From a virus: DNA of 64,000 bases. Shown here one piece after another: positions 19,885 through 20,725 of this stretch. A program made the position numbers and the translations under genes. Within the stretch, counting starts at the first letter, position 1. Each line of letters opens with the position of its first letter. The DNA lies in IMG/VR virus record IMGVR_UViG_3300047287_000420, positions 1 to 64,000 of that record. One strand, written 5' to 3'. A model generated the notes under the pieces. The model was not told where the DNA came from, searched no databases, and worked only from the letters and a program-made list of their open reading frames with translations.

Positions 19885-20725
19885 AACGGCCCGAGAGGGT
19901 CGACGACATAGGACAGCCGTCCGTCAAGACTGACGCCCACCAGGGTGAGAGCAGACCCATAAGGGATCGCACCTGGTAGTAGTGGCTGGCAGTTAGGCGG
20001 GCGGGGACCGATACCCTCAGATGCTAGTAATCAGAGGCGGGGTGTGCCCACAAGCTCTCGCGAGCCTAAGCCCCTTGCCCCCACTAGAATCTCCCGCTCA
20101 CCCGACGATGGCCTGCGAGTCACGTTAAGGGAGGCCTGGAGCTAGTGGCTTGCCCGAGAGGCCCTTGGTCCCATGCTCAAAGTATTTATCTTTGGCAGGT
20201 TGTCGATAGTTAAGTCCCCAGACTTGCGAGCTTGTGACTAACGCAGTAGCCCAGTGAGAATCAGATTCCCGGCTATTTGTATCGTTGCAACCTTTATAGA
20301 TCTGGTGTGGCCTGACGCAATAGCCCGTCCTACCCAGCTCGGGCACAATTTAACTTTCTCAAACGCAGGGATGCTGTGTCCAGAGTATCTGTCCCTCACA
20401 CAGGTACGCTGGACAAAGCCCGTAGGAGTTCTTTCTACGGTCATCGTCTCTGCAGCCAAGCCCGCAAGCCTTTAATTTTGCAGGTTTGGCACAATTTAAT
20501 AGCTTTTGTGCGCATAATGTGCGCCATAACTGACTTTAATTTGAGGTCAGTTTCCCGATTTCACTCTTTAGTGGGGCCTGGTATTACCTACCGGGCTCTA
20601 CTTAAAGGTGGGATTCTTTGTATTCGTGATCACATTTGATCATGGTGCAAAGTTTCGTTTCTGCGTTTGTGTGTGACGCTCTCACTGTGTGTTACGATGC
20701 ACACTGAGGGCCTCTACCCTCACCT
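19885..20725 (+). ncRNA. Candidate large structured non-coding RNA or structured leader
   Basis: No credible ORF. Nested long-range helices, GNRA loops and about 10 consecutive hairpins with G-U pairs on the + strand. Confidence 0.65.

Follow-up and report, generated by a model that had tools for sequence, protein, structure and literature searches.

The window, by which we mean the whole 64-kb stretch of DNA that was analysed, was taken from an 84-kb phage related to Synechococcus phage S-EIV1. This phage is an uncultured, S-EIV1-like freshwater cyanophage, whose nearest isolate by the portal-like protein is S-EIV1 itself (42.6% identity). The hairpins studied here are housed in a 1.4-kb gap free of ORFs, bordered on one side by a tRNA-Met gene and the late arm (- strand) and on the other by the early ORFs (+ strand), which beside the gap are small and without known function. 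The hairpin run at 20341-20725 lies between the two arms, 30 nt 5' of the first early ORF (ORF1), for which no PHROG match, Pfam family or Atlas lead was obtained; a PHROGs scan of 30 ORFs, the longest among them, showed no phage RNA polymerase. A signal near the genome end, one of the ideas of an earlier note on this DNA, finds no footing here: the ends of the record fall within a Gly-rich repeat gene and are therefore an arbitrary cut, and the contigs of relatives are permuted.

Upstream of the run lie two promoter-like sites and a boxA-like sequence (Table 1). The consensus scan for promoters returned 2 sites, where 2.1 would be expected from shuffles, and such sites, being no commoner than in shuffles, are no evidence alone; a weak hint is given by RNA-library contigs of two studies, which start at 19885 and ~19890, beside the second site. 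The boxA-like GAACCTGGACAA, located 600 nt 5' of the hairpin run and preceded by a GCC-GAGA-GGC hairpin, was compared with the boxA of the picocyanobacterial ITS, the reference being the reverse complement of a primer (PMC9769826); it departs from this reference at one base, and an equally good match is obtained in 30 of 100 shuffles. Exact picocyanobacterial boxA copies are present upstream of the leaders of two relatives, L009 and L042.

Table 1. Features of the early intergenic region, with positions counted in the window.
Feature	Position	Strand	Basis
Promoter-like TTGACC-18-GATGAT, possible first early promoter	19669-19698	+	Consensus scan
boxA-like GAACCTGGACAA	19730-19741	+	11/12 match to picocyanobacterial ITS boxA
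Promoter-like CCGACA-17-TAGGAT	19850-19878	+	Sequence inspection
GGCACAATTTAA copy 1, unpaired	20342-20353	+	Motif search and fold
Long-range closing helix, predicted	20358-20372 / 20657-20671	+	Minimum-energy fold
H1, 18 pairs, core 20377-20415	20373-20419	+	Fold and 106 viral contig stretches
H2 hairpin, 8 pairs	20420-20440	+	Minimum-energy fold
H3 hairpin, 13 pairs, UUUAAU loop	20455-20490	+	Minimum-energy fold
GGCACAATTTAA copy 2, unpaired linker	20488-20499	+	Motif search and fold
H4 hairpin, TGTGCGC-ATAA-TGTGCGC, 8 pairs	20507-20526	+	Fold and relatives
H5 hairpin, U/A-rich loop, 11 pairs	20528-20552	+	Fold and relatives
H6 hairpin, 26 pairs including 6 G-U	20557-20615	+	Fold and relatives
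H7 hairpin, 16 pairs	20616-20652	+	Fold and relatives
Small 3' hairpins (4, 6 and 6 pairs)	20673-20685, 20687-20704, 20705-20722	+	Minimum-energy fold
X, GACGCTCTC, 5' strand of helix Pa	20675-20683	+	Alignment and covariation
Inner variable hairpin within Pa	20687-20704	+	Compensatory changes at 5/6 pairs
Y, GAGGGCCTC, partner of X (Pa) or Z (Pb)	20706-20714	+	Covariation and energies
Z, CCCTC(A), then CCTTTTAG	20717-20730	+	Fold, energies, terminator consensus scan
ORF1, first early ORF, 101 aa, without known family	20753-21058	+	

Fold and composition of the hairpin run

The minimum-energy RNA fold of 20300-20760, from which the hairpin coordinates are taken, has 10-11 adjacent hairpins on the + strand, agreeing within a few bases with the array of about ten back-to-back hairpins described in the earlier note. 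Other details of that description require adjustment: the 130 pairs predicted within 20341-20725 account for about two thirds of the bases and not for almost all of them, 20 of the 130 are the G-U pairs that had been called many, and the stem proposed at 20489-20511 (GCACAA/TTGTGC) can form, but only as an alternative to the predicted hairpin at 20507-20526. Folded with RNA parameters, the + strand reaches -166.9 kcal/mol (z -11.4), a value equalled by none of 100 shuffles, against -130.4 kcal/mol (z -6.3) for the - strand, and with DNA parameters this asymmetry is almost gone (-72.5 for + and -67.2 for -). When the 64 kb were scanned in sliding 150-nt windows, the most stable on the + strand were those at 20351, 20501 and 20551 (-64.5, -66.1 and -60.5, as against -53, -40 and -32 on the - strand), with a G+C content of just 0.43-0.49.

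Two sequence motifs recur in the run, as had been claimed. Exact copies of GGCACAATTTAA were found at the two expected places and nowhere else in the window, the second being retained in relatives L003, L004 and L007; L113 differs from it by one change, and L122 has a variant. TTTAA occurs four times (20349, 20471, 20495 and 20535) where 0.64 copies are expected from its density in the genome, a count reached by just 0.46% of the genome's 385-nt windows. The fold leaves three of the four copies unpaired and puts the other partly into a stem, in keeping with the placing of the motif mostly in loops. The hairpins themselves are heterogeneous and do not form an array of like units: TRF returned only two-copy matches of 7 nt and 11 nt (the latter within 20507-20529) and no head-to-tail unit copies of the kind seen in ToxI-type antitoxins or CRISPR arrays, and no direct-repeat family other than the GGCACAATTTAA 12-mer pair was found. 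The suggested comparison with CRISPR repeats gave no family above chance, the sole match (15.5 bits, E = 3) being located outside 20341-20725. Rfam gathering scores were reached in the whole window by tRNAs only, and at E up to 10 the stretch 19100-20900 yielded only the tRNA and three matches at chance level.

A coding function was considered for the only long frame of the run (87 aa, 20376-20639) and rejected, since close relatives differ within it by indels of 1, 2 and 32 nt, which break the frame. Among short words, CAGGTAC has 10 matches where 5.25 are expected, a number also attained in 3 of 100 shuffles. The genome as a whole is rich in GATC (502 sites, with 328 expected), so that its conserved pair in H7 does not stand out in this respect.

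Relatives and the terminal two-state element

Searching with ORF1 recovered 20 related loci, and in 18 of the 20 folded stretches upstream of ORF1 relatives the + strand was the more stable. The leader alignment comprises 21 of the 22 unique leaders (L119 was excluded for its length), and in all 21 the features H1, GATCA hairpin, X, Y and Z follow one another in constant order, with H1 325-380 nt 5' of the ATG and the H7 tip GATCA-N4-TGATC (TGATCA-N4-TGATCA in the window) unchanged. Between these fixed points the middle hairpins differ between clades. H3 is a dispensable, variable module, missing from L003 and L113, giving way to a larger insert in L119, skipped in an RNA-library contig from run X15 and replaced in one from X18. 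In the alignment, the predicted long-range helix is retained in full only among the closest relatives, namely the window, L004 and L007; L003 and L113 have part of it. The stem letters of H5 are swapped in L119 and L122 with hairpin and U-rich loop retained, and the lower stem of H6 has changed letters in L122 and L042 with its pairing retained.

Covariation in related phages, a check proposed in the earlier note, brought out compensatory changes in H4-H7 and in the terminal domain, in sets that are small and whose members are related. For H4-H7, tested on the same 8 sequences from which the structure was derived, 89.5% were paired compared with 83.9% in shuffles and at most 44% in slid controls, and 11 pairs were changed on both sides compared with 3.8, a number reached by none of 500 shuffles. 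For the 31 distinct sequences of the terminal domain, the paired share of cells was 94.5%, compared with 80.4% in shuffles and at most 58% in slid controls, and 59 cells were changed on both sides compared with 14, again reached by 0 of 500 shuffles. Pair 12:73 of this domain is U-G in 30 of the 31, which makes pairing possible on the + strand only; together with the compensatory changes and the asymmetry seen with RNA parameters only, this pair, invariant apart from one sequence, bears out the earlier claim of an RNA structure specific to the + strand.

The terminal domain contains two mutually exclusive helices that share strand Y, namely Pa (GAnnCUCUC with GAGGGnnUC) and Pb (GAGGG with CCCUC). 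Both complementarities, X:Y and Y:Z, are present in 31 of 31 distinct sequences, and the energies of the two helices are at most 3 kcal/mol apart in 25 of the 31 (-21.4 for Pa and -21.0 for Pb in the window); in L124, Y is GAGAG and Z is CUCUC, a joint change that preserves both. The search for X-Y-Z took in 95 of ~130 contig sources, the remainder being mostly short stretches or duplicates from the same contig, and the element alignment holds 24 of 30 unique elements, with six long-insert copies excluded. This genome has a single copy. In L012, L014, L053 and L073 a second one was found between later early ORFs, and in L012 the two copies agree in tail and start region. Standing directly before other ORFs with their start regions is how a cis element behaves, and the recurrence of X-Y-Z fits a cis-regulatory cassette.

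Judged by its sequence, Pb is a terminator-like hairpin that would be weak as a terminator: it has 6 pairs, and the U run of the window is displaced by two bases (CCTTTTAG). At least 5 T are present in the 10 bases after Z in 19 of the 31 relatives, and almost none in L119, L016 and L009; the terminator consensus scan lists 20705-20722, yet such sites are no commoner than in shuffles. An attenuator based on a leader peptide was rejected, the candidate 21-codon frame (20642-20707, ending at the UGA of Y) being present in only 5 of the 31 distinct sequences, with a stop directly before it in several other relatives.

Contigs of relatives 88-99% alike cover the region in three of four RNA runs (X15, X16 and X18), each from another study, and the cover in X17 is limited to 19200-19716. 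One 1164-nt contig extends unbroken from ~19890 through ORF1 to 21085 and another stops at 20723, the foot of Pb; 21202-21500 is without cover in X15 and X16, such gaps in contigs proving nothing. These assembled contigs, which carry no strand, true ends or levels and may include DNA carry-over, are only weak evidence that the region is transcribed.

S-EIV1, for its part, has no H1 within 3 mismatches and no X-Y-Z element, and its equivalent divergent gap folds moderately (z -4.6 and -3.7), so that it provides no cultured handle; the tRNA-Met was the only match to similar DNA in cultured phages.

Proposed role of the leader

The reading we favour, and hold to be moderately probable, is that 20341-20725 is the 3' half of a cis-acting, folded early leader with a terminal switch. 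The whole is better described as an untranslated leader of ~0.85-1.05 kb, which ends in a two-state switch before the ORF at 20753-21058. This reading builds on the observed fold and its strand preference, on conservation with compensatory changes, on the two alternative pairings and on the place before ORF1. Host RNA polymerase would make the leader of the early operon, starting at one or two of the promoter-like sites (~19700 and ~19886), then pass a boxA-like signal of the host rRNA type, the chain of independent hairpins H1-H7 and finally the conserved two-state element 30-80 nt 5' of ORF1. There, Y would pair either with the upstream X, forming Pa around the variable hairpin, or with the downstream Z, forming the terminator-like Pb, which is followed in most relatives by a U-rich tail and at which transcription may end. 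Which of the two forms, Pa or Pb, is taken in response to some trigger would, we infer, govern the amount of transcription, or of ribosome access, that gets to ORF1 and the genes behind it. The hairpin chain may in addition make the 5' end of the early message compact and resistant to nucleases, and recognition sites could be present there in H1, in the GATCA tip of H7 and in the unpaired stretches rich in U and A. As background to such a protective role, RNase E has reportedly been studied in cyanophage infection.

The closest likeness is to terminator/antiterminator attenuators, which also have a shared strand with two partners and two exclusive helices, as found here. A short G+C-rich downstream hairpin, in 19 of 31 relatives with a T-rich tail behind it, and a place in a putative untranslated leader just 5' of an ORF would fit them too. 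Unlike them, the present leader has no recognised sensor, no conserved leader peptide (5 of 31) and no riboswitch or T-box match, and the U tract is missing in some relatives. The boxB/boxA leaders of rRNA operons are similar in that a boxA-like 12-mer follows a small hairpin close to where a long, highly folded, untranslated transcript would begin, but here the copy has a mismatch and is not significant alone, and the RNA behind it is not rRNA-like according to Rfam. Among phages, T7 is known for an early leader that copies boxA. Small stem-loop cassettes between early ORFs, which X-Y-Z resembles, have been described as PeSL composite terminator/promoter cassettes in T4-like phages (PMC4122927). 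X-Y-Z differs from PeSL in belonging to another phage lineage, in having two alternative pairings and no recognised promoter, and in being present once in this genome, where PeSL motifs are repeated between the early ORFs of one genome.

It is possible, but in our view rather unlikely, that the folded RNA is instead a large, ornate and stable early non-coding RNA which ends at Pb and serves in trans as scaffold, sponge or decoy, its target being a host protein or nuclease; ORF1 would then be reached by read-through only. Its length of ~0.85 kb (~19886 to 20722) and dense structure would suit such an RNA, as would the contig end at 20723 and the finding that the X15 contig departs from the window at 30 of 550 positions in non-coding 19904-20453 and at more, 62 of 598, in 20488-21085, which includes ORF1; lacking any Rfam match, a trans-acting RNA would be a new one. 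Against this, the 1164-nt contig crosses ORF1 without a break and X-Y-Z recurs before other ORFs together with their start regions, which is cis-like. Moreover, the gain and loss of H3 among close relatives and the clade-specific middle hairpins are unlike a precisely packed tertiary fold, and an unsystematic look turned up no covariation between loops or over other long ranges.

GOLLD and ROOL, large ornate RNAs found in phages and bacteria, have tRNA genes nearby. They are densely folded non-coding RNAs like the leader (PMC12286853), but the leader has no Rfam match at E up to 10, gains and loses hairpins, is contiguous with an ORF and shows no sign of multimer contacts.

The H1 near-palindrome and the remaining readings

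H1, which is the best conserved part, with the consensus TGTCCAG-[AC]G[TC]A[TCA]CTG-N9-CAGGTACGC-[TA]GGACA, was found in 106 viral contig stretches and once among 185,579 prokaryote genomes, on a MAG contig, a single match that rules it out as a host repeat. The H1 alignment holds the window and 48 of the 70 unique H1 sequences. In H1 no cell is changed on both sides, and 83.8% are paired compared with 85.0% in shuffles. One arm varies, giving mismatches at fixed positions, and the other is invariant in 11 leaders found through ORF1; as the remaining H1 sequences were fetched by a pattern fixing the 3' arm, part of that arm's invariance is built in. In L016, which the ORF1 search recovered, H1 contains CAGGTACTC, and L021 has a different hairpin at this place.

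In 64 of the 106 stretches H1 lies 160-660 nt behind a thyX stop, 45 times in the orientation of the gene and 19 times inverted. Where H1 is flipped in place in contexts other than the leader, the turned piece is bounded exactly by its TGTCCA/TGGACA ends, with both flanks still collinear. Long-range helices around H1 were predicted in 3 of 4 folded examples of these thyX-type regions, with overall z of -1.0 to -2.4. The phage studied here has a thyX of its own at 46678-47304 (- strand), behind which there is no H1, and no second H1 copy was found in this genome. In the leader context H1 is in sense orientation in 25 of the 26 top-scoring R1 matches and inverted in none.

For H1 taken by itself, a DNA-level protein site fits better than an RNA hairpin, because compensatory change is absent and both orientations work elsewhere; the same could hold for the palindromic, invariant tip of H7. 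The broader view, that the conserved parts of the run act as DNA, with H1 and perhaps the H7 tip and both GGCACAATTTAA copies as protein sites (operator or roadblock behind early promoters, replication origin or packaging site) and much of the predicted RNA structure as a by-product of palindromic sites, is one we regard as unlikely. It would account for the keeping of H1 as sequence in so many viral contigs, for its indifference to orientation, which is typical of DNA sites, and for the location in a divergent control region, a frequent place of origins and operators. H4-H7 and the terminal domain, however, vary and yet pair, their G-U pairs would be A-C on the other strand, the folding asymmetry appears with RNA parameters only, and none of 25 leader contexts has H1 inverted. 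As to an origin, the cumulative GC skew does not turn near 20 kb, and the only candidate iterons are one 12-mer pair. The view may hold for H1, yet it leaves the array unexplained.

Doubtful as well is a combination of both ideas, in which S-EIV1-like freshwater cyanophages make an ornate ~0.85-kb RNA of an undescribed class at the start of infection. This RNA would act itself, for example in the capture of a host nuclease or RNA-binding factor, and H1 would be a dispersed, palindromic flip-flop element that serves these genomes as a common control site in several places.

The reading put forward in the earlier note, that RNase III or another nuclease cuts the hairpins into small RNAs or that repeated units form a multivalent decoy, is very improbable: it gained no computed support beyond one 26-bp hairpin long enough as a substrate, there is no common unit sequence or length, no tandem repeat and no CRISPR-repeat family above chance, and RNA-library contigs cross several hairpins, although contigs cannot exclude processing. 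H6 (26 pairs, nearly continuous) and H7 (16) do have the duplex of about two helical turns that RNase III uses, lengths sufficient in principle, U/A-rich unpaired stretches lie between the stems, and the run is enriched in TTTAA. The T7 early transcript is polycistronic and is processed by RNase III at hairpins with internal mismatches. Conserved mismatched hairpins in a putative early RNA, with the mismatch positions of H1 fixed, may be likened to these; unlike them, H1 also occurs turned round with respect to its neighbours, which would be tolerable for an RNA site only with transcription of both strands.

In conclusion, the favoured reading remains that of a cis-acting early leader with a terminal switch. 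No such leader was found in the literature on S-EIV1 and on cyanobacterial boxA antitermination, as far as titles and the openings of abstracts go, and prior publication is still possible. Early phage transcripts decide the takeover of the host, and their control in cyanophages beyond the T4-like and T7-like groups is scarcely known. The kilobase-scale leader, the X-Y-Z element and H1, a 40-nt near-palindrome common to more than 100 viral contigs and inverted in place in some of them, together make up something concrete that can be tested, in a lineage of freshwater picocyanobacterial phages that is widespread. To our knowledge, the bacteria hosting these phages lack Rho. If the switch gates the early genes, it would be a new type of attenuator in bacteria without Rho, and should the RNA act in trans, the small number of known large ornate RNAs would grow by one.

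Fold, strand and setting of the hairpin array

The run of hairpins at 20341-20725, proposed in the earlier note by inspection, is a real and conserved + strand RNA structure. Folding gives ten hairpins, all within a few bases of the positions first read, together with a predicted long-range closing helix, and 20 of the 130 predicted pairs are G-U. With RNA parameters the folding energy is -166.9 kcal/mol (z -11.4) for the + strand vs -130.4 (z -6.3) for the - strand, whereas with DNA parameters the strands are nearly equal (-72.5 and -67.2, respectively); G-U pairs are therefore the source of the asymmetry, which indicates RNA, in agreement with the earlier suggestion that this pairing works on the + strand only. 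When the entire window was scanned, no + strand stretches were more stable than those of the array, whose G+C is only 0.43-0.49. The two occurrences of the 12-mer GGCACAATTTAA and the recurrence of TTTAA (4 copies vs 0.64 expected) were likewise borne out. There is also an exact 17-nt direct repeat, TTCTTTCTACGGTCATC, at 19522-19538 and 20429-20445, the second copy being the 3' half of hairpin H2 and the first lying 907 nt upstream of it, left of the promoter-like sites.

Judged by its gene content the source is a tailed phage, with terminase, portal-like and head proteins, tail fibres and endolysin encoded on the - strand and DNA polymerase A, primase and an ATPase on the + strand. The only match to the portal-like protein among 50,697 phage records is in Synechococcus phage S-EIV1 (42.6% identity), and at least half of the sampled words are present in 14 DNA runs, 12 of which carry a freshwater label. 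The viral record (84,285 bp, the window being its bases 1-64000) is rated complete by CheckV; its cut is arbitrary and uninformative on physical ends because both record ends fall within a Gly-rich repeat gene. A PHROGs scan of 30 ORFs, including the longest, found no phage RNA polymerase, and early transcription should therefore depend on the host enzyme.

No ORF of at least 100 aa was found from 19158 to 20753, and the array forms the final 385 nt of this divergent gap. A 60-nt block adjoining the tRNA-Met (19379-19438) is about 82% conserved in the distant relatives L010, L011 and L021 and also lies inside longer matches in L003 and L012, the remaining gap having diverged in those relatives. 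The picocyanobacterial ITS boxA serving as reference was read from a primer in PMC9769826, and an exact copy of this boxA 12-mer is found upstream of the leaders in the related loci L009 and L042.

Features of the array, its surroundings and the additional terminal-element copies in related loci
Feature	Position	Strand	Sequence or remark
tRNA-Met	19239-19314	-	left of the array, with the late arm
Promoter-like site	19669-19698	+	TTGACC-18-GATGAT; not significant alone
boxA-like signal	19730-19741	+	GAACCTGGACAA, behind a small hairpin; 11/12 bases; not significant alone
Second promoter-like site	ends 19878	+	CCGACA-17-TAGGAT; not significant alone
X	20675-20683	+	GAnnCUCUC
Y	20706-20714	+	GAGGGnnUC
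Z	20717-20721	+	CCCUC
ORF1	20753-21058	+	right of the array; opens a run of small ORFs of unknown family
Second X-Y-Z copy, L012	4826-4914		longer inner hairpin; between later early ORFs
Second X-Y-Z copy, L014	3835-3922		longer inner hairpin; between later early ORFs
Second X-Y-Z copy, L053	9181-9268		longer inner hairpin; between later early ORFs
Second X-Y-Z copy, L073	6272-6361		longer inner hairpin; between later early ORFs

Conserved pairing and leader layout in relatives

Through ORF1, 20 related loci were found at 42-95% identity, and the + strand was the more stable in 18 of the 20 folded upstream stretches (exceptions L009 and L020). For eight leaders of the window's type, five of them closely related, RNAalifold recovered the four hairpins H4-H7; with the tested structure derived from these same eight, paired cells amounted to 89.5% vs 83.9% in shuffles, two-sided changes occurred at 11 pairs vs 3.8 (a number reached by none of 500 shuffles), and slid controls were at most 44% paired. 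A covariance model of the terminal domain, R1, run on 95 sources, gave 37 matches, 31 of them distinct, in which 94.5% of cells were paired (80.4% in shuffles) and 59 were changed on both sides (14 in shuffles, none of 500 being as high), with slid controls at most 58% paired. Compensatory change is seen at five of the six inner-hairpin pairs and at one outer-helix pair (U-A in 24, G-C in 6), and one pair of the domain is U-G in 30 of the 31 sequences, a mismatch if read on the other strand.

Alignment of 21 of the 22 unique leaders (L119 was omitted for its length) gave a common order in all 21: H1, a TAACTnACT block, a hairpin with the invariant tip GATCA-N4-(T/G)GATC, and the terminal block. 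The sequence between these anchors varies by clade, yet a hairpin chain is formed in each, with energies per nt between -0.34 and -0.42 kcal/mol. The TAACTAACT block forms H5 in the window's clade; in most of the others its partner is AGTTAGTTA, which lies upstream of H1, and this pairing closes a first domain around H1. H3 (20455-20490) is missing from L003 and L113, has a larger insert at its position in L119, and is skipped in one RNA-library contig and replaced in another; because H3 comes and goes and the inter-anchor hairpins differ by clade, the array is modular. Leaders of other clades (L009, L014, L015, L044 and L073) carry more conserved motifs upstream of H1, namely a GGGG-CGCGAGCGAT-CCCC hairpin, repeated CTTGTCAGC words and a CACCTTTAACTAGGTG hairpin, which suggests that their 5' halves also share modules.

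The terminal element

At the end of the array X pairs with Y, enclosing a variable hairpin (helix Pa), or alternatively Y pairs with Z (helix Pb). The two lie within 3 kcal/mol of each other in 25 of the 31 sequences and Pa is the lower in 29; in the window they stand at -21.4 and -21.0. In the related locus L124, GAGAG at Y is accompanied by CUCUC at Z, a joint change that keeps both helices. Z is followed by CCTTTTAG in the window and by a T-rich tail (at least 5 T of 10) in 19/31, so that Pb resembles an intrinsic terminator, though a weak one, in most but not all relatives.

A second X-Y-Z copy occurs 0.9-1.2 kb downstream in L012, L014, L053 and L073; that of L012 begins at an early ORF's stop codon and shares both tail and start region with the copy in front of ORF1. 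Such recurrence is the behaviour of a cis-regulatory intergenic cassette. Additional copies are present in L047, L049, L054, L071, L086 and L128, loci with H1 behind thyX, and the window's genome holds one. A 21-codon frame at 20642-20707 (MVQSFVSAFVCDALTVCYDAH) begins within H7 and ends with the UGA of Y; only the window's own clade has it (5/31 distinct sequences), and a leader-peptide mechanism was rejected, the element differing from leader-peptide attenuators in that this frame is not conserved.

Four metatranscriptome runs from four studies yielded assembled contigs with 88-99% likeness to the window. X15 has one of 1164 nt that spans about 19890 to 21085, X16 has contigs across 19777-20358 (one beginning at 19885) and 20421-20581, and X18 has contigs across 20138-20592 and 20600-20723, the last ending at the foot of Pb. 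Since such contigs carry no strand, true ends or levels, and DNA may be present, they hint only weakly at expression of the region, with a start close to 19886 and an end close to 20723. In the freshwater run X17, 95-99%-alike contigs cover only the tRNA-Met and left gap (19200-19716), ending near the first promoter-like site; they carry no strand, and a possible source is leftward transcription of the tRNA and the late arm.

A proposed early leader and its alternatives

The reading that we prefer, with slightly better than even confidence, is a structured early leader with a terminal switch gating ORF1, its dense pairing possibly being protective. Host polymerase would start upstream, perhaps being modified at the boxA-like signal, and the hairpin chain would fold locally as it is transcribed and emerges; because X is made first, Pa should be the default state, keeping Pb from forming and permitting read-through into ORF1, and expression would be stopped or lowered by whatever ties up X or tips the balance to Pb. 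Another possible effect of the dense pairing is protection of the early message's 5' part against nucleases that cut single strands only; PMC3113571 and PMC9692554 point to the importance of RNase E for cyanophage infection. X-Y-Z would function in the manner of a terminator/antiterminator attenuator that closes a boxA-headed leader of rrn style; no Rfam family membership was found for this leader. As a recurring cassette X-Y-Z also resembles the PeSL cassettes of T4-like phages (PMC4122927), but it can pair in two alternative ways and no promoter was recognised in it.

An ornate stand-alone RNA acting in trans is an unlikely alternative. In size and ornateness the structure resembles GOLLD and ROOL (PMC12286853), with no match to any model.

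Somewhat more doubtful still are DNA-level sites, chiefly H1.

H1 (core at 20377-20415) is the most conserved piece, and its pattern matches 106 viral contig stretches and one contig only in 185,579 prokaryote genomes. An ORF1 homologue stands behind H1 in only 19 of the 106 stretches, and in 64 H1 lies 160-660 nt past the thyX stop (45 in the gene's orientation, 19 inverted). Between L032 and L102, for instance, and between L069 and L126, the flanks are collinear on both sides (80-92% identical) and the 40-46-nt H1 element is flipped, with breakpoints exactly at its TGTCCA/TGGACA ends. No compensatory change was found in H1, and shuffles pair at least as well, a weak test because the fetch pattern fixed much of H1. 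In the leader context, 25 of the 26 R1 hits with the highest scores have H1 in sense orientation and none has it inverted, L021 having another hairpin in its place. We read H1 as a putative recognition site, acting as DNA or as RNA.

The phage's own thyX (46678-47304, - strand) is 48% identical to that of L032 and, unlike the 64 related contig stretches, is without H1 behind it. H1 lies at most 500 nt from a contig end in 13 of 40 whole contigs (hand count, loci L024-L102), about twice the contig-length prediction; assembly breaks at a motif common to co-occurring genotypes, or mixed orientations, are the likely cause, and this proximity is no evidence of a genome end.

The processed small-RNA array or decoy of the earlier note is highly improbable, and the array of like hairpins described with it did not hold, the hairpins not being copies of one unit.

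As a structured regulatory leader the array would belong to a known kind of element, and it may be more than that.
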